Of a stretch of DNA of 64,000 bases, positions 2,331 to 36,322 are shown in pieces. Position numbers and translations under genes: made by a program. This stretch comes from Oscillospiraceae bacterium (GTDB taxonomy: Bacteria; Bacillota; Clostridia; Oscillospirales; CAG-382). The notes under the pieces were generated by a model. The model made no database searches. It was not told the DNA's origin and worked only from the letters and a program-made list of their open reading frames with translations. The stretch spans positions 47,987 to 111,986 of the forward strand of contig SVRW01000002.1 of assembly GCA_015064625.1 (NCBI GenBank), written 5' to 3'. Numbering within the stretch: position 1 is the stretch's first letter; each line of letters starts with the position of its first letter.

Positions 2331-2996
2331 ATGAAAAATATTAAAAAAATTCAGTTTAATAATTTAATAACGAAATCCTCTGACGAGCTCAACGCTTTGA
2401 AGAAAAGCAGAAAATCTGGTTTTACTCTTATTGAGCTTATTGTCGTTGTTGCTGTAATAGCGCTTCTTGTTGCTTTTTCTACAGCTACGTTTGTTTCTGT
2501 TACAAGAAGAAAGGCTACCAGAGTCGGTAAACTTATTGACAGCGAATTAACGTTACTTGCATCTAACACGTATTCAAGAGAAGGACAGTGGAGATTAGTA
2601 TTTGAATACGATCCCAAAGAAAAAGTATACGTTATGATTCAACAATTCAACATCGCTGAAAAACCTAAAGATGATGTCGAAGATGATGATTTGACCGATG
2701 GTCAGGATAACAAAATGAATGATGAATGGAATGACCAGTGGAATGATTTTTCGAGAACTCCTCTTTCGCCATCCGTGGAATTGAGCTTTGGCGATGATGA
2801 TTTTGACGAATCAGATAATAAGGACACTTATTATATTTCATTGTCCAGAGAAAAGGGATGCTATTTATCTGAAGGTGTTTTTGCAGAAGATTCTTTTGAA
2901 GGTGAATTCAATGGAAATATATATGTTCGCTCTGCAAATAAGGTTGTAACGATTCATATGTCGAAAGAATCGGGCGGACATAGAGTTGTTGATTAA
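2331..2996 (+). CDS. Type IV pilin-like (pseudopilin) protein
   Basis: RKSG/FTLIELIVVVAVIALLVAF prepilin motif with Glu5. Acidic central region. Confidence 0.75.
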   Translation: MKNIKKIQFNNLITKSSDELNALKKSRKSGFTLIELIVVVAVIALLVAFSTATFVSVTRRKATRVGKLIDSELTLLASNTYSREGQWRLVFEYDPKEKVYVMIQQFNIAEKPKDDVEDDDLTDGQDNKMNDEWNDQWNDFSRTPLSPSVELSFGDDDFDESDNKDTYYISLSREKGCYLSEGVFAEDSFEGEFNGNIYVRSANKVVTIHMSKESGGHRVVD

Positions 2997-3066
2997 GATT
3001 ATTGAGTTATTATGTATAGCGTAATAAGTAAATTTACGTTTAGGGTCAGGAAAGGCATGAACAGTT

Positions 3067-5871
3067 ATGGCACAAAAGAATTATAAAACTAAAATTATGA
3101 ATCCTGAAAAAATAAAATATTCAAATAGCGTATGGTGTTTTAATAAAAAAGGCTCTTCTCTTATTCTTACGCTTGTTGTTATATCTCTTATTGCCATAAT
3201 TTCCACTCTTGCCCTTGCGTTGTCATTGAATGCATATAAAGCAAGCGTTCAAAATAAGTGGGCTGATGAGGATTTTTATTATTGCGAAGAATGTGTTAAC
3301 GATATTTACGGAATACTTGTTGCTGAAACAAATGATATTTTTCTTGAAAACTATAAACAAGTTCTATCCTTGTTTACGACTGAAACACCTGATTTAATAA
3401 ATGAAGCTTTTCGTGAAGGTGTGAAAAGAAGCTTTGAGTTGAATTTTGGCTCAAATGAAAATTCTTTGATTATTGCATTGAATAGGCATAATGTTGAAGC
3501 GACAGATAATGAGGGGAACGTAATAGGCGAGTTAAATGTCACTTTTGATAGCAACTATCTTGACGAAGAAAGATACGTTTTCAAGGATGTATGTGTTGAG
3601 TTTAAAAACTCTTCCAGATCCGGCGAATCAAGAAAATTTTATGCTTCCATTACAACGGACTTGATTATTGATATTCCGAATCTTGTTCCTTCAATAAGAA
3701 ATGATGGAGAAGGTTCTCTTGAGTATGTATTTGTTTCGGGGAAAGATTTAAAATTTGGCGGAGAGGCTTCAATTACGGGAAATATATACGCAGGTAACAA
3801 TCTTGTTGTAGATTCTACTGCAAAAAACGTTAATTTATTTTCTGATTATATTACTGTTTGCAATCAGTTAGAGAATAATGGCAAACTTTTAGTTTCAGGA
3901 TCATCCACGTCTGCAAACATATGGTGTAAAGATATTGTTCTTAACAATAATGGTTCATTCACAGCAATTTCTGGAAATATGTTTGTGAATGATAACTTGC
4001 AGATAAACGGACAAAACTGCACTGTACAGCTTTCAGGAAAATATTACGGATATGCAGATGGCTCTAAGGAAACGTACTATGATGAATATAAAAGTATGTC
4101 TATTCCTACAAGCAGTGCAATTCTTGTTAACGGACAGGGAACTCGTCTTGATATGACAGGCATTGAAGAGCTTCTTATAAGAGGTCATTCTTTCTTCCCG
4201 CTTGATAGTAATGGTGAAAACTACAGTGGTTCAGAATCCCTTGCAACGATCGTTAGCCAAAGCATGTATATGGTAGATGCTAAATATATTAAAGAAGATC
4301 ATAATAAAGTAACAATTGGAAGTAAATCCATCGGCTTTGAAGACATTATATTTGACGGACAGACTCTTGAAGAGCTTCTTGATAAGGGGTATATATTGGT
4401 TACTGGCGGTGTTAACATTGCTGAAGTATCTGATATAACAGGTATTACAGAAGGTACTTTTGCTTCTGGATATCTTTCAAATACGGAGATAAAAGATAAT
4501 GAAGAAAAAGTTGTTGGTTACGATATAGTCAGATTAAAATGTTTTGATAACAAATATTGCTGTCTCTATTGGAATTTTAATTCATACGATACATTAAAAG
4601 ACCTCGGTTCTGATGTTGTAAGTAGTGAATATATTGCTGACTTGGGTGCAGGTGCAAATATAACCGTTGGCAATAATAAAATAATCAATTTTAACTCAAT
4701 TAAAGTTTATTATGGTGATAAACAGCTTGAAATTAACGATGATGCAATTACGGCTGAAACTATTTTCAATGCACCGGTGGATGGAAGCAACCCAAATGCA
4801 GAGCAAACTTATCAGCTTGTAGATTCTCTTGATAATAAGTATAACTTTAATTACGTATCAGGTAAAAAGCTTCCAAATGATATGTTGTCGTCATTGTCTA
4901 ATTACCTCAATGATTCTGAACCAGTAAGGGCGGTTGTTGTATCGACCAAATCTGACACTAATGACGTATATAATTATGAATTGCGCTTTTACTGGAATTT
5001 TGATTCTGAAAAATTTAAAGACCAAGGTTCTGGTGATAAATTCATTTCTGCTTGTATAGAAGCGGGATTGATTAACGGTTTTCTTGAAAATTTCATGGAT
5101 GGCGGATATATTAAAATCAGTGGTGATGCAAATGTCAGCACGAAAGCAGATCTTTATGAATATATTGCAGACGCTGACGGATATATTGCCCAAAAGTATG
5201 GCGATTTTACAAATTCTTTGTTTGATTCCCCATTTTTTGCCAAGAACTTTTCAGATTCATATAAATGGTATAGGACAACTTTGACACCTAAAAAATATGA
5301 TCCAATTAAAGCACTTCTTCCTTTTGGTGATGATCATAAGATTTCTTCAAAATATTCATTGTTTGAACGTCAGTCATCTTGTTATAACAATTCAACGAAA
5401 AAAGTAGAAGAAGTTAGATATATTGATTTTTCAGAAATAAATGGAATTTCTGGTTATAATGAGATTTCTGCTGATAATTACAAGATTCTTATTGTAAACG
5501 GAGATCTTGAAATTATAAACGGTGTATGGACTTCTGGCGGTAGCATCATTTATCAGGGTGTAGATGCTTTCCACGGTATGATATTTGTTAATGGAAACGT
5601 CAGAATTGATTCGGACATAAAATTCCGTGGAATGATAATATCTGACGGCGAAGTTAATGTTTCCAAAGGTGATTTCGTTTATGATGTTGATATCGTTGAA
5701 GAATGTCTTGAGAACATAAAAAATACTTCGGCAACGGAAGCTCATAGATGGGAGACACTCGTTTCTGATGAATTTTATACACGCAAGAGCGTTGAGATAA
5801 CAGGTTCATCTTCGCTCAATGCAGTTGACTGTATAAGATATGAAAACTGGACAAGAAACAGAGATAAATAG
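3067..5871 (+). CDS. Very large (934 aa) pilus-associated protein with a pilin-like hydrophobic N-terminus lacking Glu5 (GspK/PilX-like minor pilin or tip adhesin)
   Basis: NKKGSSLILTLVVISLIAIISTLALALSL. It sits between canonical pseudopilin genes. There is no Glu at +5, as in GspK-type minor pseudopilins. Confidence 0.55.
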   Translation: MAQKNYKTKIMNPEKIKYSNSVWCFNKKGSSLILTLVVISLIAIISTLALALSLNAYKASVQNKWADEDFYYCEECVNDIYGILVAETNDIFLENYKQVLSLFTTETPDLINEAFREGVKRSFELNFGSNENSLIIALNRHNVEATDNEGNVIGELNVTFDSNYLDEERYVFKDVCVEFKNSSRSGESRKFYASITTDLIIDIPNLVPSIRNDGEGSLEYVFVSGKDLKFGGEASITGNIYAGNNLVVDSTAKNVNLFSDYITVCNQLENNGKLLVSGSSTSANIWCKDIVLNNNGSFTAISGNMFVNDNLQINGQNCTVQLSGKYYGYADGSKETYYDEYKSMSIPTSSAILVNGQGTRLDMTGIEELLIRGHSFFPLDSNGENYSGSESLATIVSQSMYMVDAKYIKEDHNKVTIGSKSIGFEDIIFDGQTLEELLDKGYILVTGGVNIAEVSDITGITEGTFASGYLSNTEIKDNEEKVVGYDIVRLKCFDNKYCCLYWNFNSYDTLKDLGSDVVSSEYIADLGAGANITVGNNKIINFNSIKVYYGDKQLEINDDAITAETIFNAPVDGSNPNAEQTYQLVDSLDNKYNFNYVSGKKLPNDMLSSLSNYLNDSEPVRAVVVSTKSDTNDVYNYELRFYWNFDSEKFKDQGSGDKFISACIEAGLINGFLENFMDGGYIKISGDANVSTKADLYEYIADADGYIAQKYGDFTNSLFDSPFFAKNFSDSYKWYRTTLTPKKYDPIKALLPFGDDHKISSKYSLFERQSSCYNNSTKKVEEVRYIDFSEINGISGYNEISADNYKILIVNGDLEIINGVWTSGGSIIYQGVDAFHGMIFVNGNVRIDSDIKFRGMIISDGEVNVSKGDFVYDVDIVEECLENIKNTSATEAHRWETLVSDEFYTRKSVEITGSSSLNAVDCIRYENWTRNRDK

Positions 5872-24809: not shown

Positions 24810-26501
24810 ATGAAAAAATCAATAAAAGTAGCCTTACTTTCAGTTCTTGCCGTAGTTGTTGTTTTGGGCGTTCTCGCTTTTTTGTTCTGGGACAACATAA
24901 TCAACTTTACTGCAAAAACTCTTAAAACTCCCGAGGAGTATTATGTTTATGTTGAAGAAGCAAATCTTGAAAAAACTGCTTCCTCGATTTATGCTTTGCT
25001 TAACGTTGATGAACTTACAAAAGATTATAAAATTGGAACAAATGGTTCTTTCAAGGTTGAAACAGGTGAGGGAATGGCTGATGTTTACAAGCTCTTGTTT
25101 GGTTCTGCTTCTGAGCTTGAATGGCTCAAGAGCGTTGAATTCAAGCTTGAATCAAACGGTTCTAAAGAAATTTCCGACGGTAAGCTTTCAGGCTTGCTTA
25201 ACGGAACAGAAATAATTTCTGCCAATTTTGTTGTGGATTCTAAAAATGAGAATATGTATTTTTCAGTTCCTCTTTTAACCGATAAGGTTATAAAAATATC
25301 TTCTGAGGATATGGAAGACCTTTATGGAACAGACCTTGAAGACATAGTAGATTCTGCTACGGGTTCTGTAGGCTCAACTTCCGTTTTCGGAAACGAAAGC
25401 ATGGAAAAATTGGTTGCCGCTATTCCTTCCGAAGAAGTTTTCACGAAGATTCTTTCTCATTACATTGATGTTGCAGTAAAGAATATTGACGGCGTTGAAA
25501 AAACCTCCGAGACCCTTACAATAAACGGAGTAACTCAATCATGCACGGTTATTTCCTATGAATTGGACGAAGCTGATTTCAGAAAGATTGCAAAAGCGGT
25601 TTTGATTGAAGTTGAAAAGGATAAGGATATAGAAAAAATCATAAAGGATTTTGCTAAAGCTCTTGGTGAAGATGAAAACGAAACATATGAGAGCTTTGCA
25701 AAGGCTGTTGAAGAAGCTATAGCAGAGCTTGAAAACGTTGTTGAGCATCGTTTGACCAGAGAGAAGACCGTTATCAGAAACTATGTTGGCGGAAGCGGTA
25801 AGGTTGTTGCAAGACAGATAAAGGACGACACGAGTGAATTCTTCATTGGTAACGTCAGAAAAGGCTCTGACGTTGCAACGGAAATTCGTTTTGTGGACGA
25901 ATTTGCAGACGAAGAAGAAAGCTTTAAATTCTCAGGAAAAGGCATTATTAAATCAAATAAGCTTTATGGAAGTTACACAATATACGAAAACGATGACGAA
26001 CTCTTGAAAATTGGCGTTGATAAATTCGATCTTAAAGCTCTTGATACTGAAGGAAAATTTAGTGGAGAATTTTCTGTTTCCGCTGGCGGTAGAATCGATA
26101 AACTTTTGGATGGAATGGATAAAAAAGTAGCTTCTTTTGTAGAGTCTTTGAAAATAAAATTCATCGCTGGAGATAATAGCGGTGCTTTGGAAATCTATTC
26201 CAAGGATAAGCTTTGTGTGAAATTTGCTGTGAAAGCAGAAGAAAAGGCTTATAAGGCTCCAGTTCTCCCCGATGAAAGCAAGGTTATTTCTGTATCAGAC
26301 GAAGAAGCGCTTGTAAAGGCTCTTGAAAACTTCGACCCACAGACTTTGATTGATAAACTTAAAGAAGCGGGTCTTCCCGAAGATTTGTTTGGAGGAATGG
26401 GCGGTTCTGCCGATTCTGATGATTCAGACATTTTTGAAGATTATGAAGACCTTGAAAGTGTTGAGGCTCTCAGCGTTTTTGATGACCAATTTGTAGCTTA
26501 A
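24810..26501 (+). CDS. Hypothetical membrane-anchored or secreted acidic protein (563 aa)
   Basis: N-terminal anchor KVALLSVLAVVVVLGVLAFLF. GGAGGG RBS. No family recognised. Confidence 0.6.
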   Translation: MKKSIKVALLSVLAVVVVLGVLAFLFWDNIINFTAKTLKTPEEYYVYVEEANLEKTASSIYALLNVDELTKDYKIGTNGSFKVETGEGMADVYKLLFGSASELEWLKSVEFKLESNGSKEISDGKLSGLLNGTEIISANFVVDSKNENMYFSVPLLTDKVIKISSEDMEDLYGTDLEDIVDSATGSVGSTSVFGNESMEKLVAAIPSEEVFTKILSHYIDVAVKNIDGVEKTSETLTINGVTQSCTVISYELDEADFRKIAKAVLIEVEKDKDIEKIIKDFAKALGEDENETYESFAKAVEEAIAELENVVEHRLTREKTVIRNYVGGSGKVVARQIKDDTSEFFIGNVRKGSDVATEIRFVDEFADEEESFKFSGKGIIKSNKLYGSYTIYENDDELLKIGVDKFDLKALDTEGKFSGEFSVSAGGRIDKLLDGMDKKVASFVESLKIKFIAGDNSGALEIYSKDKLCVKFAVKAEEKAYKAPVLPDESKVISVSDEEALVKALENFDPQTLIDKLKEAGLPEDLFGGMGGSADSDDSDIFEDYEDLESVEALSVFDDQFVA

Positions 26502-26520
26502 TTTTTCAATTAAATAATTC

Positions 26521-26545
26521 AAGCCCGCCAGAACGGCGGGCTTTT
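26521..26545. terminator. Bidirectional terminator between convergent genes
   Basis: AAGCCCGCC (26521-26529) pairs with GGCGGGCTT (26535-26543), followed by a T-run. Confidence 0.7.
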
Positions 26546-26616
26546 GCTTTTGGTTCCAAACAAATTGTCTTTTTGGACAAATTATTTGTTTTATCTGTTT
26601 TTTTAACTTTGGTTTA

Positions 26617-27147
26617 TCAGTCAAACGCCTTTGTTCTGTCCATGTCGAAACTGGGGTTGAAGGCGTAGAAATTTTTGTAATCCAAGTTATCCTGAACTAT
26701 ACGGAGTGCATCGCCAAAGCGTTGGAAATGTACCAATTCGCGTTCTCTGAGGAAACGGATAGGGTCTATTACGTCGGGGTCCTGAGCAAAACGAAGAATA
26801 TTGTCGTAAGTTTTTCTTGCTTTTTGCTCTGCCGCCAAGTCCTCGTGGAGATCTGCAAAGGTATCACCTGTGCTTTGAATATATGATGCTGTCCAAGGAA
26901 TACCGCCTGCGGAAGCAGGGTAGATTCCTGCGGTGTGATCAACGAAATAGGCTTCCAAGCCTGCTTCTTTGATTTGTTCCATCGTCATGTTGCGTGTAAG
27001 CTGATGGATTATAGCGGCTACAATTTCCATGTGCGCCAATTCTTCCGTACCAATGTCCGTGAGTAAGCCAACAACTTCCTTGTATGGCATGGTGTATCTT
27101 TGGTTGAGATAACGCATGGAAGCACCAAGCTCACCGTCAGGACCACC
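26617..27147 (-). pseudogene. cotJC: cotJC 3' segment (Mn-catalase family spore-coat protein), separated from its 5' segment by the element
   Basis: Translates ...GGPDG-ELGASMRYLNQRYTMPYKEVVGLLTDIGTEELAHMEIVAAI..., which matches CotJC/Mn catalase from about residue 30 onward. No start or RBS of its own at the family N-terminus. Confidence 0.9.
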
Positions 27148-27167
27148 AGACGGCTTTTTATTATAAT
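27134..27167. repeat. Left attachment junction (attL-like): 14-bp core plus 19-bp element arm
   Basis: Core CCGTCAGGACCACC (27134-27147) is identical to 35754-35767. The arm GACGGCTTTTTATTATAAT (27149-27167) is the exact reverse complement of 35740-35758. Confidence 0.85.
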
Positions 27168-27169
27168 GT

Positions 27170-28633
27170 TCAAGTTGAAAAATAAACAGCCACAGATTTA
27201 GTGGATTTCAGGTATACTACTTTACTTACTACTGTTCTGACGGCTTCGTTCTTTGATTTCGCTGTAACGTCTGCACGTTTAATATATTGCAGTATGCTAC
27301 GGACTTTTTCTGTATAAGCATTTAGATCTAAGATTTGCCCGTTGGCTTCGCTCTGCATCAGAGCGTTGAGCTCGTTTATTCGTGCGGTGATATCCTCTTT
27401 GTTCTTTGCGTATTGTTCGATGGAATCGATTTCTGAAAGATATGCGGCCTTCGCTCGTTCCAACTTGCGTTTCTCGATTGCTATAAGCTTTTCGTAATCG
27501 GGGGTATCCTTCACGTTGGAGTCGGGCTTCTGCGGTTCTACGTTGAATATTTGGTGTTTTACAGAATCCTCCAGGGCTTGAAGGAATGCTTCTTCAAGTT
27601 TTGGAATCGTAACCGAGTGGGAGACGTGGCAGGATCCGCGAGAGTAATTACAGCACTGCATACTTCTTGCCCCGTTCTTAGTCGTTGCGCTACTCATTGC
27701 CAAAGTTGCCCCGCATGCGCTACAACGTACTATTCCTTTAAGCATATACTCCACAGGCTGATCTCTTTTAGCGTATGGGGGATATGCTTTTTTTTGCGCC
27801 TCGATTCGCTTCTGCACAGTTTCCCACAGTTCCTCTGATATGAGCGGTTCGTGGTGCCCCGACACTGTCATTATATTTTGGTTTGTATAATCTCTTTTGG
27901 AAACTGCACGTGCGCCTTCCAAGCTCCAACGGATCTTCCCGATGTAGCAAGGGTTATTAAGGATATATTTTATCCATCGGTTTTCAGGCGTTTTTCCGCT
28001 TTTGGTTCTTATCCCGCGTTCTCCCAAGCTTATGGCGATTTCACGTTCTGCTTCTCCTGCGGCGTATCTTCGGAAGATCTCACGAACTATATCTGCGGGC
28101 CCGCTTTCATCAGGGTAGTATTTCTTTTCTTTCATCACGTAGCCGTAAGGCGGGGCACAGGTGGGCTCTCCGCGTGAAGCCTTTTCTGTCATTCCTCTGG
28201 TTACCTCTGCGCCCAGGTTGATTAAATAGAATTCATCCATCCATTCTATTATACGCTCTATCAGAGTTCCGAAGTGGCCTTCGGGTATTGGCTCTGACAC
28301 GGAGACAACGGCAACGTTCTTTTTGCGAAGCAGGTTCTTATAGACCATGCTCTCTTCCTGATTTCTTGCAAAACGTGAGAACTTCCAAACGTATATTACC
28401 TCAAAAGGATGCTCCTTCTCCTTCGCCATGGCGATCATGCGGTTGAATTCCGTTCTGCGCTTTGCACTCTTGGCTGAAATACCGTCATCGTAGAATACGT
28501 ATTCATCGGGAATGAGGTATCCTTCCTTGGCGGCGTATTCTCTTGTTTTCTTCAGCTGACTATCTGGGCTGTATTCGTCCTGGCGTTCATCTGATACGCG
28601 GATATACGCAGCTGCTATTTTAAGTGGTATCAT
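27170..28633 (-). CDS. Large serine recombinase (resolvase/invertase N-domain, recombinase domain, zinc ribbon, coiled coil)
   Basis: AAYIRVSDERQ catalytic-Ser motif; CSACGATL...CCNYSRGSC zinc ribbon. 487 aa. The stop is 22 nt from the att core. GGAG RBS. Confidence 0.9.
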   Translation of the reverse strand: MIPLKIAAAYIRVSDERQDEYSPDSQLKKTREYAAKEGYLIPDEYVFYDDGISAKSAKRRTEFNRMIAMAKEKEHPFEVIYVWKFSRFARNQEESMVYKNLLRKKNVAVVSVSEPIPEGHFGTLIERIIEWMDEFYLINLGAEVTRGMTEKASRGEPTCAPPYGYVMKEKKYYPDESGPADIVREIFRRYAAGEAEREIAISLGERGIRTKSGKTPENRWIKYILNNPCYIGKIRWSLEGARAVSKRDYTNQNIMTVSGHHEPLISEELWETVQKRIEAQKKAYPPYAKRDQPVEYMLKGIVRCSACGATLAMSSATTKNGARSMQCCNYSRGSCHVSHSVTIPKLEEAFLQALEDSVKHQIFNVEPQKPDSNVKDTPDYEKLIAIEKRKLERAKAAYLSEIDSIEQYAKNKEDITARINELNALMQSEANGQILDLNAYTEKVRSILQYIKRADVTAKSKNEAVRTVVSKVVYLKSTKSVAVYFST

Positions 28634-28662
28634 TCGGATCTCCTTTCTCGGAAATTTGAGGT

Positions 28663-28679
28663 GTTCGGAAATTCCGAAC
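28663..28679. promoter_or_regulatory. Perfect 17-bp palindrome in the recombinase 5' leader (operator candidate)
   Basis: GTTCGGAA-A-TTCCGAAC lies 30 nt upstream of the recombinase ATG. A related half-site, TCGGAAATTT, is at 28649-28658. Confidence 0.5.
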
Positions 28680-28705
28680 AGTTGGATATTTTATATAAAA
28701 AAGTG

Positions 28706-28734
28706 TTGACGATTATAAAATGACATGATATAAT
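28706..28734 (+). promoter_or_regulatory. Near-consensus sigma-A promoter for the DUF4160/DUF2442 pair
   Basis: TTGACG (28706-28711), 17-bp spacer, TATAAT (28729-28734). Confidence 0.65.
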
Positions 28735-28764
28735 GTATTCAGAAAGACGAGAGGAGATTTACTC

Positions 28765-29016
28765 ATGCCTGAAATTACAAGATTTTATGGAATTATTATC
28801 AAGATATTCTTCACGCGGGAGCATAACCCGCCTCATTTTCATGCTGTATACGGAGAATACAATGGCACGTTTGAAATATCAACGTTGGAAATGATTGAAG
28901 GCGATTTGCCGAATAAAGCACAAGCTCTTGTTAAAGAGTGGGCTGCACAGTATATTGATGATATTATGAAAATGTGGGATACTAAAACATTGAAGAAATT
29001 GCCACCGCTTGAATAA
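28765..29016 (+). CDS. DUF4160 family protein
   Basis: MPEITRFYGIIIKIFFTREHNPPHFHAVYGEY is the typical DUF4160 N-terminus. GAGGAG RBS. Confidence 0.75.
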   Translation: MPEITRFYGIIIKIFFTREHNPPHFHAVYGEYNGTFEISTLEMIEGDLPNKAQALVKEWAAQYIDDIMKMWDTKTLKKLPPLE

Positions 29017-29043
29017 GGCTATTTTAAAAAATAAGGGGGTGTT

Positions 29044-29304
29044 TTGGTGAGTTTGTCAATCAGAGTAAAAGACGTTAAACCGTTGGAAGATATGTGCTTA
29101 TTGGTACACTTTGAAAATGAAATCGTAAAAAAGTACGATATTAAACAATTATTGGCACAGTTCCCCATATACGAAAGATTAAAAAATGAAGAATTATTCA
29201 AGCTGGTCAAGGTAGACTGCGGTGGTTGTGCGGTTGCCTGGAACGAGGATATAGACATTTCGGAAGTTGAACTATGGGAAGGCGGCACCGAGGTGTTCGT
29301 ATAG
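29044..29304 (+). CDS. DUF2442 family protein
   Basis: VKDVKPLEDMCLLVHFENE ... AVAWNEDIDISEVELW pattern. It is the usual partner of DUF4160. The start is TTG 29044 or GTG 29047. Confidence 0.7.
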   Translation: MVSLSIRVKDVKPLEDMCLLVHFENEIVKKYDIKQLLAQFPIYERLKNEELFKLVKVDCGGCAVAWNEDIDISEVELWEGGTEVFV

Positions 29305-29371
29305 AATTTAATAACGTTCAAAATCAAGGGCTTATCCTATTAGGGTAGGCTCTTTTTTTATTGGTATAAAA

Positions 29372-29406
29372 TCGGCAGATTTAACGGTTTGTTTGAAATC
29401 TGCCGA
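29372..29406. terminator. Strong hairpin (11-bp perfect stem), bidirectional terminator candidate
   Basis: TCGGCAGATTT (29372-29382) pairs with AAATCTGCCGA (29396-29406). T-rich on both flanks. Confidence 0.55.
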
Positions 29407-29473
29407 ATATTTATTCTTATTTGGCTGATGGGACGATTTGTTGACGTCAGCAAAACGTTATTACCTTTTTCAG

Positions 29474-29497
29474 CATTTTGCCAACGTTGGCAAAATG
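29474..29497. repeat. Perfect 24-bp palindrome
   Basis: CATTTTGCCAAC|GTTGGCAAAATG. Confidence 0.8.
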
Positions 29498-29524
29498 GTA
29501 GCGGACTATCAACGCTTTCGGCAG

Positions 29525-29564
29525 CTTGTGCATTTTTTGCACAAGTTGAATTTTTTTGTTTTTT
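29525..29564 (+). terminator. Hairpin plus T-tract; its sequence resembles the immunity-region operator
   Basis: CTTGTGCA (29525-29532) pairs with TGCACAAG (29538-29545), followed by TTGAATTTTTTTGTTTTTT. Contains TGCATTTTTTGCA. Confidence 0.55.
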
Positions 29565-29589
29565 CAGTTTGTGCAGAATTTGCACGAAC

Positions 29590-30933
29590 TTACGCAAAAT
29601 GTTTAAATGCGCGTCTGAAGCCAGCTTCTTCTGCTTCTTTTACAGTCATAGCAAAAAACTCTCCAGGTGCATCGATTTTTGTAGCATCATATTGCTGATC
29701 AAAGGGAAGATGATATATTTTTGTTTTTTCTCCTGCTTCGCCTTTACCTATATTACATTTAATGCAAGGATATTCCCCTTTGGCGTAATTTGTTTTATGT
29801 TTTATTTTTAGAAAGTCTGCCATTTTTAATGCTGTTTCAGAAAGTTTTGTGTTTGTAACAAGAACGCCTGTAACGTTTTTAACATCAATGTTTTTCTCTA
29901 TACAGTAACTAATCATAGTTCCATAGAGTTGGGCTATATGTTTTTCGTGTATTGTTTTTTCTTGACTCCAATATTTACATTGAACAATAAGTGTTTTATT
30001 ATCTTTTCTTGCAATTAGATCTCTTCCTAAATCCTCTAATCCCATATAAGATCCGAAATAATCTACGGAATATCCTTGCTGTGAATATTGATATCCCACA
30101 TATAGTTCATAATCTCTCCCTATTTGCCATTTCGTTTTGTTGTGAGATTCTTTGTATCTGTCAAGGGCGAGTTGATTTCGTTCAATGCTACTAAGATTTT
30201 TATATTCTTCCTTGCTGAGCCAATCTCTTGTTCGGTCATATTCAGATATTTTGGTTGCGTCAATTATCGGAAGATCTTTGTAGTCTGTTTCGATAACGTC
30301 GTTGAGCGAAGGAAAAAGATTTAAAAGATATTCCAACTGATACTTTGCTTCAAGATTTTTTTCTACCATTGCTTTCGCGTCTTGCCTGATCTCGCGTATA
30401 GACTTGACTTTTTCAAGCCTTTTGATTGCTCTACCCCAGTCTAAATTGCACGCAAGAATTTCCAGGGAATGAGTTTCGTAATCTGAAATTATAGATGCCA
30501 TATATGGAATTGCAGTTAAATTTGATTTAGTAGATTCGAAAAAGCGAATTTGTTCTCTAAGCATGTTGATTTCTTTTTCAAGAGATTCTTTCTCATGCTT
30601 AAATTGTATAGAATATTTTTGTGAAAGAACTTCTATTTCCTTCTTTAACGCTTTTTTTTCTTCGTTATGATAGTAATTGGAAAAAACATGGGAGGCATCC
30701 AGAAATCCTTTTAGTTCTCTAAGTTTGCTTTCAAGGTTTTTTATTTTTACTTTGGAGTGGTCGAGTTGTGCTTTAAGGGAATTATTGTTCTCGTTAAGGC
30801 GAGAAAGCTGATTTTGGAGATTTTTGTTCGTTCTATTCAATTGTGCAATCTCTTTTTCTGTGCCTCTATTAACAAGGGTTTTAAGAAACATGAATATACA
30901 TATAATTGATAAAGCAATGAGTGCTTCTTTCAT
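29590..30933 (-). CDS. Membrane-anchored coiled-coil protein with a C-terminal Mrr-cat-type restriction endonuclease domain
   Basis: N-terminal TM helix (ALIALSIICIFMFL), then about 200 aa of heptad-rich sequence. The nuclease core is GRDYELYVGYQY...GLEDLGRDLIARKDNKTLIVQCKYW (D...D/E-x-K). The C-terminal tail is IYHLPFDQQY...AEEAGFRRA. Confidence 0.65.
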   Translation of the reverse strand: MKEALIALSIICIFMFLKTLVNRGTEKEIAQLNRTNKNLQNQLSRLNENNNSLKAQLDHSKVKIKNLESKLRELKGFLDASHVFSNYYHNEEKKALKKEIEVLSQKYSIQFKHEKESLEKEINMLREQIRFFESTKSNLTAIPYMASIISDYETHSLEILACNLDWGRAIKRLEKVKSIREIRQDAKAMVEKNLEAKYQLEYLLNLFPSLNDVIETDYKDLPIIDATKISEYDRTRDWLSKEEYKNLSSIERNQLALDRYKESHNKTKWQIGRDYELYVGYQYSQQGYSVDYFGSYMGLEDLGRDLIARKDNKTLIVQCKYWSQEKTIHEKHIAQLYGTMISYCIEKNIDVKNVTGVLVTNTKLSETALKMADFLKIKHKTNYAKGEYPCIKCNIGKGEAGEKTKIYHLPFDQQYDATKIDAPGEFFAMTVKEAEEAGFRRAFKHFA

Positions 30934-30945
30934 TAGGTGAGTCCC

Positions 30946-31572
30946 CTACTCTATATCGTATTTTCCGGATAAGACTTTGCCGAGAATACGAACTCGGTCA
31001 AGCTCAGCTCCTTGGAATCGTGTTGGCTTATATAAAGGATTTTCGGGTACGAGGGTGAGGATTTTGTTTTCTCTGTCAAAATAGATTCGTTTTACGGTTG
31101 CTGAATCGTCTATAAGAACTACGGCGATTTCGCCATTTTCTACAGTGGGTTGGGAACGGATAAACAAAATATCTCCTTCAAAGATTCGTGCATTTATCAT
31201 GCTATCTCCTTGTGCGGTGAGACAAAAATCAGCGTGGATATTATCATCCTCGTCAACATATACTTCGTGGAGTTCTTCAGCGAAGATCGGCTCTCCACAC
31301 GCTACGTTCCCAAGGAGGGGGAATCGTTTCACTGATAGAGGACGAAAATTGTCAGGAATTGTTGGGTCGGGTTCTTCCCAGCCCATAAGATATGCGGGAG
31401 TTGTTTTTAAGGCGTTGGCGATGGGAATTAAAACATCAACAGGGAGCTTTTCAATGTCCCCCTTTTCATATCTGAAAATAGTAGATCTATCTTTTCCGAT
31501 GAGTGCGCCCAATTCCTCTGCAGTAATATTTAGTTCTTTTCTTCGTCTCTTAATGCGTTCTCCGACTGTCAT
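30946..31572 (-). CDS. Phage CI/LexA-like repressor (XRE HTH plus S24 peptidase)
   Basis: HTH is GERIKRRRKELNITAEELGALIGKDRSTIFRYEKG. Autocleavage elements are VACGEP, GDSM (Ser) and VKR (Lys). ATG 31572 is preferred over the ORF opening at 31626. Confidence 0.85.
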   Translation of the reverse strand: MTVGERIKRRRKELNITAEELGALIGKDRSTIFRYEKGDIEKLPVDVLIPIANALKTTPAYLMGWEEPDPTIPDNFRPLSVKRFPLLGNVACGEPIFAEELHEVYVDEDDNIHADFCLTAQGDSMINARIFEGDILFIRSQPTVENGEIAVVLIDDSATVKRIYFDRENKILTLVPENPLYKPTRFQGAELDRVRILGKVLSGKYDIE

Positions 31573-31621
31573 TTTTCTACCTCCCCATAAATAGTATTTT
31601 TGATAATTATATAAATAGTGG

Positions 31622-31705
31622 TGCAAAAATGCAATACTAAAATATTAACAAATTGTAAATGTTGCAAAAATGCAAAAAAGCAGCTTGACAAATCGCATTT
31701 TTGCG
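31622..31705. promoter_or_regulatory. Operator array of the CI/Cro switch
   Basis: TGCAAAAATGCA occurs at 31622-31633 and 31663-31674. The inverted variant CGCATTTTTGCG is at 31694-31705, inside the rightward promoter spacer. Confidence 0.6.
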
Positions 31706-31712
31706 GTATAAT
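31685..31712 (+). promoter_or_regulatory. Rightward (Cro-side) sigma-A promoter
   Basis: TTGACA (31685-31690), 16-bp spacer, TATAAT (31707-31712). Confidence 0.65.
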
Positions 31713-31750
31713 GAAATAAAAATCGCATAAACGCAACAAAGGAGAGAGAA

Positions 31751-31954
31751 ATGGAAAAGGAATCATTGACTGAGCTCATCAATAAGAGCGAGAGAACTCG
31801 TGAGGCGTTGGCAGAAATGCTATCAATAGACCGAGCAACATTGTATCGTAAGATGAAAGACCCACAAAAATTCACTGTAGGAGAGGCTCGAAAACTTAAA
31901 GAGCAATTAAATCTTACACAAGCTCAGGCTTCGTATGTTTTTTTTGGGGATTGA
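31751..31954 (+). CDS. Small Cro-like HTH protein
   Basis: 67 aa, divergent from the repressor. HTH is RTREALAEMLSIDRATLYRKMKD. AAGGAG RBS. Confidence 0.65.
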   Translation: MEKESLTELINKSERTREALAEMLSIDRATLYRKMKDPQKFTVGEARKLKEQLNLTQAQASYVFFGD

Positions 31955-32024
31955 GTCGCATTTGTGCAAATTTAAAAAATAAAAAAATCTCCTGCAGGAG
32001 CAGGAGGAGATAAGGGAGGATGTT

Positions 32025-32498
32025 ATGGTTAACCCTAAAAAGCCAGAGGGTGTAGAGTTTTCAATAGAAGACTGTATTGCTGTGCTTGAAAACATAAAAG
32101 GACGTGCAAAGCATTATGACGAGATGTATCCGCACTTTCCCAAGGAATATTGCGAGGAACTTGCAGGGATGGATTGTTTAGTAATAGATACGGTTATTTC
32201 AGTACTTCGAAAAACCAAAAAAGAGCTGGCGATTGCCAACTCCATAGAGGTATTAACGCATTTGAGTTCTATTTTGAGGAAGGACGGATCCGTTGACGAA
32301 TGCTTCGGCGGTTGGCTTTCGTATTATCCTTCGATTAAGAATCCGTCATTTGCGGTAAGGTATGAATACGCGTCTGAGCTTAAGTTTGTTATGGAGTATT
32401 TAGCGGACGAAAGAGAAGAAGCGGAAAAGGTTTTGAACGTTGCCGACTCCATAGATATATTAGCTGATTTAAGTACCGCTCAGAAAGGAAAGAAATGA
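32025..32498 (+). CDS. Hypothetical phage protein
   Basis: GGGAGG RBS. 157 aa. No motif recognised. Confidence 0.5.
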   Translation: MVNPKKPEGVEFSIEDCIAVLENIKGRAKHYDEMYPHFPKEYCEELAGMDCLVIDTVISVLRKTKKELAIANSIEVLTHLSSILRKDGSVDECFGGWLSYYPSIKNPSFAVRYEYASELKFVMEYLADEREEAEKVLNVADSIDILADLSTAQKGKK

Positions 32499-32806
32499 AT
32501 ACATATAAACTCAATCTTCAGCATTTTGCTGAACCCAACACCAACGTAACCACCGACTCCGGTTTGTCAGTGGAGATGAAAACTCTGTATGACGATGCGC
32601 TCATTGATGAAGCGAGCCCTATGCTCGTACATGATCAATTTGGTCAGAAAAGACCTATTCCCAAAGGAAAAGGCAAAAAAATAGAATTCAGAAAATATGC
32701 TTCTCTTCCCAAAGCAACCACGCCTTTAACCGAAGGTGTTACCCCTAACGGAAGCAAATTGTCCGTTACAGCTATTGAAGCTGAGGTAACCCTAAATATT
32801 TTGTAG
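32495..32806 (+). pseudogene. Truncated phage major capsid protein (N4-gp56-like), N-terminal ~100 aa only
   Basis: LNLQHFAE... LIDEASPMLVHDQFGQKRPIPKGKGKKIEFRKYASLPKATTPLTEGVTPNG is the conserved capsid N-terminus. The ORF stops where homologues continue for more than 200 aa. Confidence 0.65.
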
Positions 32807-32808
32807 AT

Positions 32809-34095
32809 TTGAGAAGATTTTTCAATCTATCGAAAAAAATACCTTTGAGAGCGTACAGGGCGCTTAATGCGGATTGGGAAGAAGCGAAGAAATACGCTCC
32901 CATTGCATTGGTTAAAGAATACGGAGGATTTGACGTTGGTTCGAGCAACGGAAGCAAGAATCTTTTTAGACCCAAAAAACGTTCCGAAAAGTTTTCGGAT
33001 ATAATTGGCGGTTTCCCCGGTTTTATGGATAAGGTGGGCTGGACATCGATTTGGCGAGCGGTCAGACGGGAAGTAGCAGAAGATCACAAGGTAAATGCCA
33101 AGGATATAAACGAGGCGTTCATGGAAAAATACGGTCAAGAATGTGCAGATCGTTTCACGGAAATTATACATAAGTCTCAGGTATATGACTCTGTGTTCTC
33201 GCGCAGTGAGTTAATGCGGTCAAAGTCACAAGCTGCGCAGATATTAACGATGTTCAAGGGCGAATCCACCAAGATATTGACGATGACGTGGACGACCTAT
33301 ATAGAAGCTCTCAGACTTAAAAAAAGCGAAGGTATTATAGCTGCTTCGAAAAAAATCGTATCGTTTGTTGCTGCGTTTACTTTGTCACAGGCGCTTAACT
33401 CTGCTCTCAAGTCTTTGGTTAATGCGGGTATGGATGACGACGAGGACGAAACGTGGACAGAGAAATATATTCAAGCTTTTGCGGATGATTTCGATTCAAA
33501 CACGGGAATAGATGGATTTTTACAGCTGTTCCCCGGAATAAGCGAATTGGTTTCAAAATGGAACGGATACAGGCTTAAAAGAATTGAATTCGCATTGTTT
33601 GAAAATCTTATAGATTCCATCCAAGGTTTTGACAACGAGCGTAAATCCGAAACAGAGAAATGGATGGATCTCGCCTTCTCTGTGTCGGCTTTGTTAGGTT
33701 TCCCTGCGGAGAACGTATACAAAGATACCCAAGGTATAGCCAACTCGGTTCAGACGATAATAAAAGACGTTGCCAACAAAGACGAAACAACGTTTGCGGA
33801 AGCGAAGGATGCCTTTATGGAAGGCTGGACAGGCGAAGATCAATCAAAAAAAGAACCTAAGGAAAGCTATTCTGAAAGGGCTTATGCAATTATTGCGGAA
33901 TTTGAGGAAGGCAACAACGAAGAGGCGAAGAAAAGAATAAAGTCTTTAGTTGATGATAAGAGAAAAGCACGAAAAGGACCAAAAGGGAATCCAAGAAGAA
34001 CAAACGTTGATCATCTATGGGCTACTTGCCTGCCTCAAGGGGTTGAAAGAGCAGGGCTGCAACGGACCTGTCACGGAAGCTATAGGAAAAATTGA
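32809..34095 (+). pseudogene. Phage structural/head-associated protein fragment with no credible start
   Basis: The frame opens only with a TTG 2 nt after the truncated capsid ORF and has no RBS. The charged C-terminus looks frame-disturbed. Confidence 0.4.
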
Positions 34096-34141
34096 AAAAC
34101 ATCTTAATCAGAAAGCACACAAAAGCTAAGGAGGTGGTCAT

Positions 34142-34537
34142 ATGTCATACGATATTGAACTGAAAAATCAAACGGGAGAATCGATTATATACAATGAAAT
34201 TGGAGAGATATCGATTCCGCTCGCTGACAAATCAGGAGAGGGAACTTTTGCTGCACGACATACGGTAACTTATGATTTACATGAACAGTTTCAAAAGCAA
34301 GGTGGAGACACATGCGCATTCGGGGTTGACTTTGTGGCTGTTATTTATACAGAAGGGACTGTTCTCATTCCTGGTGATGCAGGAATTGAAGTCTACATAG
34401 GAGGTGCAATGATTACTTTGTTTGAGGATTCAACAGCGACTGATAGTGCGACAATAAAAAGAAGCACTAATCAGCTGATTATTAAGCTGCCCGGTAATAT
34501 TATAACGGGAGATGTTTTAATAAGCGTGGAGGTGTGA
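34142..34537 (+). CDS. Hypothetical phage protein
   Basis: AAGGAGG RBS. 131 aa. Coupled to the amidase gene. Confidence 0.5.
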   Translation: MSYDIELKNQTGESIIYNEIGEISIPLADKSGEGTFAARHTVTYDLHEQFQKQGGDTCAFGVDFVAVIYTEGTVLIPGDAGIEVYIGGAMITLFEDSTATDSATIKRSTNQLIIKLPGNIITGDVLISVEV

Positions 34538-34538
34538 T

Positions 34539-35405
34539 ATGATAATAACCATTGATGCAGGTCATACGAAAAATACGAACGCAGGGATTATAAAAGGGTA
34601 TTACGAGGGCAACGCCATGTTTATCCTTGCCAACTACTTGCGTGAGGAATTGTTGAGATACAAGGACGTTGGGGTTGTCCTCACGAGAGACGAAGACGAT
34701 AACCCCACGCTTTCCGACCGTGGAAGCCTCGCTATAAACAGCAAAAGTAAAATCTTCATTTCCCTTCATTCCAACGCAGTAAGTAATGCTGAATCTGCCG
34801 CCTACGTTTGCGGATTTTACAGCGTTAAAAGGGAAGTTTCAAAGGAACTTTGTCAAAAACTTGTTTCTGCGGTAACTGACGTCATGAAAGAAGAAACGGA
34901 CGCCTGGAACAGAGGCGCACTTACGAAGAAAAATTCCGCAGGGTCAGATTATTACGGAGTTATCAGAAGCTCTGTTGCGGGTAAAAGCGAAGTGGAATAT
35001 TCCTTTATTATAGAACACGGTTTTCATACAAACAAAAAAGAATGTGAATTCTTGATGGATGATAAAAACCTTCGGAAAATAGCAGAAGCAGAAGTGAAGG
35101 TTTTGGCAGAGTATTTCGATTTGAAACTACGAAATGCTAAGATATATAACGTTGAAATCGGTCCTTTTAAAGGAGAAACCAGGGCTGAGGAAGTGGTTGA
35201 AAAGGTTAAGCAAGCGGGTTTTTCAAATGCTCGCATAATCGAAGCAGCCACGCTAAAGACTGTGGAAGATTTCGCCAAAGAAATCATTGACGGAAAATGG
35301 GGACTGGGACATGCTATGAGAGAAGCGAAATTGAAAGAAGCAGGATGGCTTGAGCTCTATACATATGAAGAAATAAGAATCAAAGTAAATGAGATTTACA
35401 AATAG
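34539..35405 (+). CDS. N-acetylmuramoyl-L-alanine amidase (Amidase_3) endolysin with a C-terminal binding region
   Basis: IDAGHTKN, SLHSNA and IIEHGFHTN zinc-ligand motifs. A SPOR-like segment YNVEIGPFKGETRAEEVVEKVKQAGF. Confidence 0.8.
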   Translation: MIITIDAGHTKNTNAGIIKGYYEGNAMFILANYLREELLRYKDVGVVLTRDEDDNPTLSDRGSLAINSKSKIFISLHSNAVSNAESAAYVCGFYSVKREVSKELCQKLVSAVTDVMKEETDAWNRGALTKKNSAGSDYYGVIRSSVAGKSEVEYSFIIEHGFHTNKKECEFLMDDKNLRKIAEAEVKVLAEYFDLKLRNAKIYNVEIGPFKGETRAEEVVEKVKQAGFSNARIIEAATLKTVEDFAKEIIDGKWGLGHAMREAKLKEAGWLELYTYEEIRIKVNEIYK

Positions 35406-35417
35406 GAGGAAAAGGAT

Positions 35418-35675
35418 ATGGAAATGTTAAACGGTTATATTGTGCCTGTGACCCTTGTAGTATGCTTGTGCGTTGGGTACATAGTCAAACACTATATCCC
35501 AACGGATAAAATCAACAAGTTTATCCCGTTAATTGTTGGATTGCTTGGTGTGATCATTACAGCATGGAATTCAGATTGGGTAATCAATCCTGATATTCTT
35601 GCAATTGGCTTGGTGAGTGGGCTCGCGTCAACGGGACTGCACGAGTTGTTCAGACAATTTATAGACAAGAACTAA
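35418..35675 (+). CDS. Phage holin
   Basis: 85 aa with two TM helices, directly after the endolysin. AGGAGG RBS. Confidence 0.65.
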   Translation: MEMLNGYIVPVTLVVCLCVGYIVKHYIPTDKINKFIPLIVGLLGVIITAWNSDWVINPDILAIGLVSGLASTGLHELFRQFIDKN

Positions 35676-35683
35676 GGAAAATA

Positions 35684-35711
35684 TTGCTTTTGGTGAAAAA
35701 TATGGTATAAT
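35684..35711 (+). promoter_or_regulatory. Outward-facing promoter-like element at the right end of the element
   Basis: TTGCTT (35684-35689), 16-bp spacer, TGgTATAAT (35703-35711). It points across attR, antisense to cotJC/cotJB. Confidence 0.45.
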
Positions 35712-35739
35712 GAATGTCAAATAGCATTGTGTGAAATGA

Positions 35740-35767
35740 ATTATAATAAAAAGCCGTCAGGACCACC
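35740..35767. repeat. Right attachment junction (attR-like): 19-bp element arm plus 14-bp core
   Basis: ATTATAATAAAAAGCCGTC (35740-35758) is the reverse complement of 27149-27167. The core CCGTCAGGACCACC is at 35754-35767. Confidence 0.85.
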
Positions 35768-35854
35768 GAGCTGACTCATGATGAGTTTCGCCATTGCTGG
35801 GTCGGGATTTTTAATGTTTACAGGGTATTGAAGTTTTTTATCGTATGTCCACAT
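35741..35854 (-). pseudogene. cotJC: cotJC 5' segment (codons 1-34), running into element DNA and stopping after 3 foreign codons
   Basis: MWTYDKKLQYPVNIKNPDPAMAKLIMSQLGGPDG|FLL*. This matches the B. subtilis CotJC N-terminus (MWVYEKKLQYPV...). The ATG is 1 nt after the cotJB stop. Confidence 0.9.
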
Positions 35855-35855
35855 A

Positions 35856-36098
35856 TTAGTATACCTCCCAAGGCCAAGGCTGATTTATCCAACTCCACGA
35901 ATCCCCTTTTACTTCACCTGCGGTGAGAGGGCCGTATTTTGATGTGAATTCATCGTAAGCGGCTTTTACCTGGCTTTGCATATTTTTGTAATATTCCATA
36001 GCCTGCGTGCAATTTGGATGTCCGTCTAAATATAAAACTGTTTCGTGTAGTGCAAACTGTAATGCTTGAAGCTTTCTTAAATCCTTTGCTCTGTTCAT
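35856..36098 (-). CDS. cotJB: Spore coat protein CotJB
   Basis: LRKLQALQFALHETVLYLDGHPNC..A..YY is the CotJB signature. 80 aa. Overlaps cotJA by 4 nt. Confidence 0.85.
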   Translation of the reverse strand: MNRAKDLRKLQALQFALHETVLYLDGHPNCTQAMEYYKNMQSQVKAAYDEFTSKYGPLTAGEVKGDSWSWINQPWPWEVY

Positions 36099-36322
36099 CT
36101 TCTGTGCCCCTTTCCATATCCTAAAAAAGGTTTATCCAAGTCTGCAAAAAGCGTTCCCGCACCAAAAGCATCATCTACGTCATAGATGTTCTGCCAACGC
36201 TGAAAAGGAACGTACGCCATTGCAAGAGATATGTTTTCAGGGAAAAGGGATGCGCTGTCGTTTTGAACTTCCCTTGGGTTTCTGCAAAAATTGCAGAAAA
36301 CTTCTTCTTCGTGTTTGAGCAT
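36095..36322 (-). CDS. cotJA: Spore coat-associated protein CotJA
   Basis: AMAYVPFQRWQNIYDVDDAFGAGTLFADLDKPF is the CotJA core. The start codon is uncertain because there is no clear RBS. Confidence 0.75.
   Translation of the reverse strand: MLKHEEEVFCNFCRNPREVQNDSASLFPENISLAMAYVPFQRWQNIYDVDDAFGAGTLFADLDKPFLGYGKGHRR

Follow-up and report, generated by a model that had tools for sequence, protein, structure and literature searches.

A predicted near-palindromic attachment site in a serine recombinase element that splits cotJC of an Oscillospiraceae bacterium

The window analyzed here is a 64-kb (64,000-nucleotide) stretch of the genome of an Oscillospiraceae bacterium (assembly GCA_015064625.1, contig SVRW01000002.1, positions 47,987 to 111,986 of the forward strand), in which the gene cotJC is split by an inserted element of 8,620 bp. 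The two junctions carry 14-bp direct repeats and 19-bp inverted arms, which are read here as attL and attR, the attachment (att) sites of a large serine recombinase (LSR) element in cotJC; the 2-nt overlap at which crossover would occur is predicted at CC 27143-27144 and 35763-35764. As cotJC is a sporulation gene, with mother-cell expression known for its B. subtilis and C. difficile homologues, the element falls in the known class of sporulation-gene intervening elements. The evidence presented below indicates that it is likely a defective prophage that was put into cotJC by the LSR, would still be competent for excision, and has been kept as a switch of the skin or SPβ type.

Repeats at the junctions of a split gene

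The features from which the argument starts are given below in window positions.

26617 to 27147, minus strand: cotJC 3' fragment (codons 30-205 and stop; Mn_catalase family)
27134 to 27147: left core copy, inside the cotJC 3' fragment; the coding (minus) strand reads GGTGGTCCTGACGG
27145 to 35764: inserted element (8,620 bp), what deletion has left of a temperate phage
27170 to 28633, minus strand: large serine recombinase gene (int), 487 aa (Resolvase, Recombinase, and Zn_ribbon_recom domains; phrog_95 integrase)
35754 to 35767: right core copy, at the end of the cotJC 5' fragment
35754 to 35854, minus strand: cotJC 5' fragment (codons 1-34)
35856 to 36098: cotJB, directly upstream of the cotJC 5' fragment
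36095 to 36322: cotJA, upstream of cotJC together with cotJB

The split gene lies on the minus strand in a cotJA-cotJB-cotJC operon, and its 5' fragment as integrated reads into the element and stops after GFLL. In-silico removal of 8,620 bp (the element with one core copy) yields an in-frame Mn_catalase/CotJC protein of 205 aa (E-value 2.7e-56), in which the core, GGTGGTCCTGACGG, codes for Gly30-Gly31-Pro32-Asp33-Gly34, the conserved GGPDG motif; neither a second cotJC nor a second serine recombinase is present in the 64-kb window. Sister lineages possess an uninterrupted cotJC (product 97% identical, DNA approximately 83% identical) that runs through the insertion site without an indel and lies in the same neighborhood, comprising a sigma factor, a zf-HC2 anti-sigma factor, cotJA, and cotJB. 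The identity shared by attP and attB, together with the collinearity of the restored cotJC, fits conservative recombination with no duplication and no loss.

The 14-mer CCGTCAGGACCACC occurs at only two places in the window, 27134-27147 and 35754-35767, even when one mismatch is permitted, and the bases next to its two copies are unlike on both sides (a/g before, a/g after), so that the identity is exactly 14 bp, the length that an initial annotation of this DNA had assigned to the core. The arm GACGGCTTTTTATTATAAT at 27149-27167 and the stretch 35740-35758 are perfect reverse complements; the match cannot be extended outward, and with up to three mismatches allowed the arm is confined to these two places. 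The right arm runs 5 nt into the start of the right core copy. Both the arms and this overlap, likewise described in the initial annotation, were reproduced, and the arm pair is the top inverted repeat of the 10-kb region (22 nt, 95%). By our own arithmetic, approximately 7-8 pairs of exact 14-bp direct repeats are expected by chance in 64 kb (2x10^9 pairs x 4^-14), and the core alone therefore proves nothing, while the window-wide expectation for a perfect 19-bp inverted repeat is approximately 0.015. The repeat pair is convincing because both cores are the break points of a single split frame, the arms abut them, and int ends 2 nt from the left arm; a chance origin of the repeats was rejected on these grounds of position and of the serine recombinase gene lying alongside.

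The gene int sits at the very edge of the element. Its product matches PF00239 (Resolvase) at residues 7-156 (E-value 2.4e-26), PF07508 at residues 180-278, and PF13408 at residues 297-354, the latter two being the C-terminal Recombinase and zinc-ribbon domains, and a coiled-coil insert is assumed to follow residue 360. The YIRVS14 motif aligns with the catalytic domains of 3g13 and TP901-1, the nearest solved structures matching the catalytic domain only. The consensus residue is present at each of the 93 positions with at least 90% conservation across 70 relatives, these positions including Arg12, the nucleophile Ser14, and the zinc-ribbon residues Cys304, Cys307, Cys327, and Cys335. Over its full length, the protein is at most 70% identical to any integrase found in the species-representative genome collection, and its best match among GenBank phage records is 37% identical.

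Anatomy of the att sites and the predicted crossover

The hybrid sites, the predicted crossover positions, and the sequences rejoined in silico are as follows.

27120 to 27167: left junction (hybrid att site, approximately 48 bp), with cotJC half 27120-27142, center 27143-27144, and element half 27145-27167
35740 to 35787: right junction (hybrid att site, approximately 48 bp), with element half 35740-35762, center 35763-35764, and cotJC half 35765-35787
27143 to 27144: predicted crossover, left; CC on the plus strand, GG on the cotJC/int coding strand (Gly31)
35763 to 35764: predicted crossover, right, on the same basis; CC on the plus strand, GG on the coding strand
attB junction stretch: GAGTCAGCTCGGTGGTCCTGACGGTGAGCTTGG
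attP junction stretch: AAAAAGCCGTCTGGTGGTCCTGACGGCTTTTT
52-bp attP: ACATTATAATAAAAAGCCGTCTGGT-GG-TCCTGACGGCTTTTTATTATAATTC
approximately 46-bp attB: CTCATCATGAGTCAGCTCGGT-GG-TCCTGACGGTGAGCTTGGTGCTT

On the strand shared by int and cotJC, the rejoined attP reads ATTATAATAAAAAGCCGTCTGGT-GG-TCCTGACGGCTTTTTATTATAAT, a 48-bp near-palindrome that is symmetric at 21 of the 23 positions of each half-site, its dyad being broken only at positions 1 and 4 and by the central GG. The 19-nt arms make up positions 5-23 on each side of the center, and positions 2 and 3 are symmetric as well; the 23 nt assigned to each half-site mark the limit of symmetry and are comparable to the SPβ minimal sites. The rejoined attB reads ...ATCATGAGTCAGCTCGGT-GG-TCCTGACGGTGAGCTTGGTGC..., and the 14-bp identity spans -3 to +9 about the center, the core being simply the stretch in which attP and attB happen to agree. 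Two small symmetries in attB, AGCTC/GAGCT centered 3.5 bp from the attP center and GTCAG/CTGAC centered 2 bp away, are probably by-products of the coding sequence, since they lie off center and only 5 of 15 attB positions are symmetric about the true center. A shift scan asking whether the distal zinc-ribbon motif lies 5 bp nearer the center in attB than it does in attP showed peaks with a period of 3 (-1, +2, and +5), which derive from ATN-ATN isoleucine codons.

These results refine the initial annotation in several respects. The circle junction it had written was recovered by in-silico rejoining, and its proposal of a near-palindromic attP of the size and shape expected for binding by an LSR dimer is supported by the symmetry of the 48-bp site. 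The two arms flank a 10-bp center as it had described, except that the symmetry runs on inside this center, where only -1 and -4 differ; similarly, the identity of the core is exact, while crossover is expected at the central 2 bp of the attP symmetry rather than at an arbitrary point of the 14. The AGCTC/GAGCT symmetry that it had noted in attB is present and is probably coincidental, given its displacement. Lastly, for attP x attB the att pair can reasonably be called ready-made, as it had been there, whereas attL x attR is expected to need a directionality factor, and none was identified in the searches described below.

The prediction that crossover takes place at the central GG/CC is drawn from the attP symmetry center, the register shared by the integrase family, pairs of integrated and free relatives, and the core segment common to relatives. 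When one genome per species was scanned with the integrase, 79 loci were recovered whose products are 38-70% identical to it across the full length, nearly all of them in metagenome-assembled genomes of Oscillospiraceae, Eubacteriales, or other Clostridia. In 23 of these genome loci (class A, the orientation of the window), cotJC sequence starting near codon 30 begins within approximately 25 nt of the int stop codon, and in 21 (class B) the stop codon is followed by the reverse complement of cotJC codons 1-33; in approximately 10 further genome loci, a free palindromic attP joining both arms follows in the same register. A further 72 loci, many of them on contigs 38-45 kb in length, came from IMG/VR and include approximately 31 free attPs (17-23 of 26 positions symmetric about GG/CC) and approximately 13 cotJC junctions. 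In total, approximately 90 related integrases have a site in the same register directly after the stop codon (approximately 40 free attPs and approximately 57 cotJC junctions), and the center always falls on the GG in the second of the Gly codons, which becomes CC in inverted elements; one locus, L060, has perfect 24-nt arms around CC. Among closer relatives, the integrase-proximal arm is kept with the consensus ATtATcATAAAaa.CAaTt.GG, for which the window has ATTATAATAAAAAGCCGTCTGG.

Two comparisons of integrated and free forms bracket the center from both sides. Over 2.1 kb through int, the integrated L004 and the free L005 share 99% identity, their homology ending exactly past the central CC, and divergence between L150 (free) and L151 (integrated) starts right after GG. 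In relatives for which both ends are available, the core is 5 bp (GGAGG, L059) or 21 bp (L076), and these share only GGNGG with the 14 bp of the window. In a neighbor-joining tree of the integrases, classes A and B are interleaved at least six times (for example, L003 of class B with L030 of class A; the window and L002 of class A beside L001 and L031 of class B; L060 of class B beside L044 of class A), a pattern suggesting that the central dinucleotide of a palindromic attP has flipped repeatedly. Such repeated changes of orientation fit the site anatomy because the polarity of a near-palindromic attP would rest on two bases.

Several loci depart from this arrangement. At L059:7400-16200, cotJC is interrupted twice, by a 3.9-kb mini-element of the cotJC-targeting family at the GGPDG site and by a second insertion of approximately 4.3 kb near codon 62-65 in which two further serine recombinases, of 487 aa and 613 aa, are encoded. 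L071:4650-13530 looks like a tandem array in cotJC, consisting of a 5' fragment, an element with int, an attP-like joint (17/26 symmetric), a segment of approximately 4.2 kb, and a 3' fragment. An outgroup clade (L066, L069-L074, L077-L079, and also L142, L157, L158, and L160) at 37-40% identity lies outside cotJC; its junction enters the C-terminal part of a protein with an ...QWGSCSLGEQGYSPIEILRYFYG... motif and a peptidoglycan-binding domain, and weak SleB-type cortex-lytic matches (E-value 2.5e-8) indicate that this protein may be another spore-related target. In L034 and L037 (47% identity), no insertion is present at the GGPDG site; int converges on cotJC from its 3' end, the gene being collinear between about codons 16 and 197, and this sub-lineage may use a different site.

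Proposed mechanism and competence for excision

By analogy with the established LSR mechanism, from which the steps of binding, synapsis, cutting, and rotation are taken, an integrase dimer would bind each att site, two site-bound dimers would synapse, and all four strands would be cleaved at the central GG/CC (27143-27144 and 35763-35764), the cuts being staggered by 2 nt. The subunits would then rotate by 180 degrees and the ends would be religated, leaving cotJC whole with attB and the element as a circle with attP. Polarity would be set solely by the non-palindromic GG. Integration (attP x attB) is expected to proceed with the integrase only, and excision (attL x attR) is expected to need a recombination directionality factor (RDF). 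Under this scheme, mother cells would regain an intact cotJC as they sporulate, and SOS induction might have the same effect; a trigger by sporulation and/or by SOS via the LexA-like repressor of the element is inferred only.

That the element is still excision-competent is favored by an integrase matching the family consensus at all 93 conserved columns and by the state of the element ends. The junction is identical, next to the same integrase or cotJC fragment, in 11 further metagenome contigs from 11 samples; samples with this lineage include JGI 3300024270, 3300024268, 3300024269, and 3300018493 and ENA ERZ27248436. The arms and cores are perfect although the capsid gene and other phage genes are truncated; the persistence of perfect recombination sites amid decayed phage genes is argued to reflect selection on the recombination unit.

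A number of points weigh against this reading. Recombination is predicted from the sequence, and the crossover position is derived from symmetry and from relatives, not from the window element itself. The rejoined 205-aa CotJC of the window lineage is absent from a collection of 15 billion proteins, an exact core-plus-arm scan of Joint Genome Institute (JGI) metagenome contigs returned four matches, all of them unrelated chance matches in DNA of high guanine-plus-cytosine content, and scans of IMG/VR gave no match for the attP center or for a degenerate full attP and 20 chance matches for an arm plus center. Neither a free form of the element nor its attP junction was recovered from these two collections. 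No directionality factor was identified: by tblastn of all open reading frames (ORFs) of the element against the 79 related loci, the small ORFs are without counterparts, the shared genes being only the LexA-like repressor and some lysis and structural pieces, and the L059 mini-element contains no recognizable counterpart of the small ORFs of the window. The DUF2442 protein has a weak match to an "excisionase" PHROG (E-value 2.6e-5), but the DUF4160/DUF2442 pair to which it belongs is described in the literature as toxin-antitoxin-like and looks like toxin-antitoxin cargo; PHROGs and PADLOC scans gave nothing decisive, and the RDF literature searched makes no mention of either domain. Besides this pair, the small ORFs at 31751-31954, 32025-32498, and 34142-34537 are places in the element where such a factor might be encoded. 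Finally, no convincing mother-cell promoter was found upstream of int, and the regions upstream of int in 30 relatives are not conserved and share no motif. A sigma-70 scan gave 22 sites against 23 expected from shuffled sequence, which is no excess; upstream of cotJA, an AC-N16-CATATAAT match resembling a sigma-K promoter was seen by eye, without statistical support.

These negative results are in keeping with an alternative in which the att sites are fossils, that is, genuine LSR sites in an element that has lost its directionality factor or regulation, so that cotJC is permanently split, which would be tolerated as CotJC-type catalases are often redundant. This alternative is considered unlikely, if far from negligible. 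Most of the phage has been deleted, with the capsid and a giant protein reduced to fragments, and the C. difficile cotJC paralogues have been reported to be dispensable for coat formation; moreover, all 11 other contigs are in the integrated state, and neither a rejoined cotJC nor attP turned up in the public assemblies searched, nor an RDF candidate in the related loci, PHROGs, and RDF literature. Assemblies of vegetative-cell DNA, however, are not expected to show mother-cell-specific excision products, and decay of the recombination system sits poorly with an int ORF intact at all 93 family-conserved positions, with perfect arms and cores beside decayed phage genes, and with an element kept identical across 11 samples. 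An excision-competent element is preferred over a fossil.

The remaining alternatives concern how the repeats are to be interpreted. Crossover could take place at another point of the 14-bp core, such as the first GG or a position in TCCTGACGG, in which case the center of the palindrome would not be the cleavage site; within the window, any of the 14 identical bp is compatible, and the proximal arm has GCCGTC where the family consensus is CAaTt, so recognition could differ in detail. This is nonetheless quite improbable, given that all characterized LSRs cut at the center of attP symmetry (SprA; the gin discussion), that approximately 40 free attPs of relatives share the same center, which the integrated and free pairs bracket, and that the core of L059 is no longer than GGAGG. 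Inverted repeats at the ends of an element flanked by direct repeats are also the classic signature of a transposon, with the 19-bp repeats as terminal inverted repeats and the 14-bp repeat as a target-site duplication. The chance that this describes the present element is vanishingly small: it encodes no DDE transposase, the LSR being its sole recombinase, the supposed right duplication overlaps the right arm by 5 nt, and relatives exist as free, phage-sized genomes in which the arms are joined around the same center. Furthermore, the same cotJC codons have been struck by approximately 57 related elements, a site specificity that transposons do not have, and the core length ranges from 5 to 21 bp among relatives where a duplication would be of fixed length. 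A DDE-type transposon was rejected on the absence of a transposase, the single family-wide target site, and the variable core length, and the LSR interpretation of the junctions is retained.

Known systems, significance, and other genes of the element

Known LSR-edged elements that split sporulation genes include skin in sigK, SPβ in spsM, vfbin, vrin, gin in gerE, and yin in yabG. In its predicted att anatomy, the window element is closest to SPβ. There, the core and the perfect inverted repeat each measure 16 bp, the symmetric halves of 25 bp contain 3 mismatches, and the recombinase SprA cleaves at the central dinucleotide, the minimal sites being an attP of 52 bp and an attB of 44 bp (Abe 2014, PMC4191935; Abe 2017, PMC5499854). 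In both cases, a phage element bearing an LSR splits a mother-cell sporulation gene, and cutting at a central non-palindromic dinucleotide, established for SPβ, is predicted for the window element. The corresponding figures for the window sites, whose attP is likewise almost fully symmetric, are a 14-bp identity, 19-bp perfect inverted repeats, and 23-bp halves with 2 mismatches plus the center. The dinucleotide differs, being GG in place of AA. SPβ is, in addition, an active 134-kb phage of Bacillus that targets spsM and has the factor SprB, whereas the window element is an 8.6-kb remnant from a gut Clostridia lineage in cotJC, in which no SprB-like factor was identified; SprA and the window integrase are unrelated beyond the family level. 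The attP of SPβ was called uniquely symmetric in 2017 (Abe 2017, PMC5499854), and the predicted sites of the cotJC-targeting family indicate that near-full attP symmetry is not unique to SPβ.

The skin element of B. subtilis and C. difficile, excised by SpoIVCA from sigK, is also a defective prophage in a sporulation gene, with its LSR gene at the element edge next to a gene fragment and an ORF that is rebuilt by excision, as is that of the window in silico (Serrano 2016, PMC5025042). It differs in that sigK encodes a regulator and cotJC a structural or enzymatic coat protein, and in that an RDF (CD1234) and control by sigma-E/SpoIIID are known for skin, while no RDF was identified for the window element. 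The gin element of B. cereus, which occupies gerE and is served by GirC and GirX, is likewise a small, non-phage-sized LSR element in a sporulation gene (PMC5595907); gin is without phage genes, whereas the window element keeps repressor, capsid-fragment, and lysis genes, and the RDF GirX adjoins its recombinase, an arrangement with no recognizable equivalent here. The logic of deriving att sites from element boundaries and predicting a dinucleotide core, as well as the convergence of distant LSRs on a coding site, was presented by Durrant et al. (2022; PMC10083194), whose examples, in the portions of that paper available, are a Mg-chelatase-like gene and a prolyl isomerase and do not name cotJC. 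The present element may also be set against the sites of skin in their dimensions. Those sites have a 5-bp core with imperfect 21-bp repeats.

cotJC itself has been reported as a target: in Laceyella sacchari it is split by an element resembling skin (Galperin et al. 2022, preprint), and the gene was already listed by Abe et al. (2013), as cited in a preprint. In the available portions of these sources, the phenomenon is listed without att-site anatomy and the hosts are Bacilli; within the same bounds, a cotJC-targeting Oscillospiraceae/Eubacteriales family with both orientations is not described in the literature found. Current understanding is not overturned by these results, their added value being the size of the family and the repeated changes of orientation. 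The approximately 90 relatives provide a natural series of att sites (free, integrated both ways, tandem, and nested) for the study of co-evolution between integrase and site, and cotJC of uncultured gut Clostridia would join the sporulation genes that carry excisable prophage remnants. An attP/attB pair is fully specified, with a predicted GG crossover, for an uncharacterized serine integrase; orthogonal integrases are useful in genome engineering, and highly symmetric attPs are suited to the study of dinucleotide-set polarity. More broadly, it is conceivable, if somewhat short of probable, that the window element is a domesticated member of a large, undescribed family of gut Oscillospiraceae/Eubacteriales phage integrases, all targeting the cotJC GGPDG codons with near-palindromic attPs and flipping orientation repeatedly, and that in this member the phage has been whittled to a fixed 8.6-kb unit serving as a mother-cell or SOS switch for a spore-coat catalase.

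Besides int, the element contains the following genes.

28765 to 29304, plus strand: DUF4160/DUF2442 pair
29590 to 30933, minus strand: Mrr_cat nuclease (447 aa, coiled-coil plus Mrr_cat)
30946 to 31626, minus strand: LexA-like repressor (S24 plus helix-turn-helix, HTH)
31751 to 31954, plus strand: Cro-like HTH protein
32495 to 32806, plus strand: N-terminal fragment of a major head protein (103-aa ORF)
32809 to 34095, plus strand: fragment of a giant phage protein (428-aa ORF)
34539 to 35405, plus strand: amidase endolysin
35418 to 35675, plus strand: holin

Of a major head protein profile 356 positions long, the 103-aa ORF covers no more than positions 11-110, in the first third, and the 428-aa ORF covers positions 2862-3183 of a 3513-position giant-protein profile; these truncated structural genes at 32495-34095 mark the internal deletion behind the remnant. 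The DUF4160/DUF2442 pair and the Mrr_cat nuclease lie between the repressor and int, which are neighbors in many relatives, and are shared by none of the 79 related loci; they are probably acquired addiction or defense cargo. The LexA-like repressor faces the Cro-like gene across a perfect sigma-70 consensus promoter (31685-31712).

Two further sequence features lie near the ends of the element. A perfect 8-1-8 palindrome, GTTCGGAA-T-TTCCGAAC, at about 28655-28675 (minus strand) immediately precedes the ribosome-binding site of int, with a promoter-like region before it and the int start codon after it, and could be an int operator. Approximately 30 nt inside the right arm, an outward promoter-like site with an extended -10 (TTGCTT-N16-TGGTATAAT, 35685-35727) is directed across attR and lies antisense to both cotJB and the 5' fragment of cotJC; the -10 of this site and the downstream 24 nt are a 79% copy of the early promoter at 31685-31712 (copy region 31685-31728).

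Outside the element, the window carries ordinary chromosomal genes, among them mutS, mutL, and those for aminotransferases and ABC transporters. In one sister lineage (L085:8600-15950), approximately 7 kb of extra genes, including EamA, several HTH_3 regulators, PNPOx, and DUF6054, are present between the intact cotJC and a conserved 563-aa gene; in the window, cotJC and the counterpart of this gene are approximately 115 bp apart (26501-26617).

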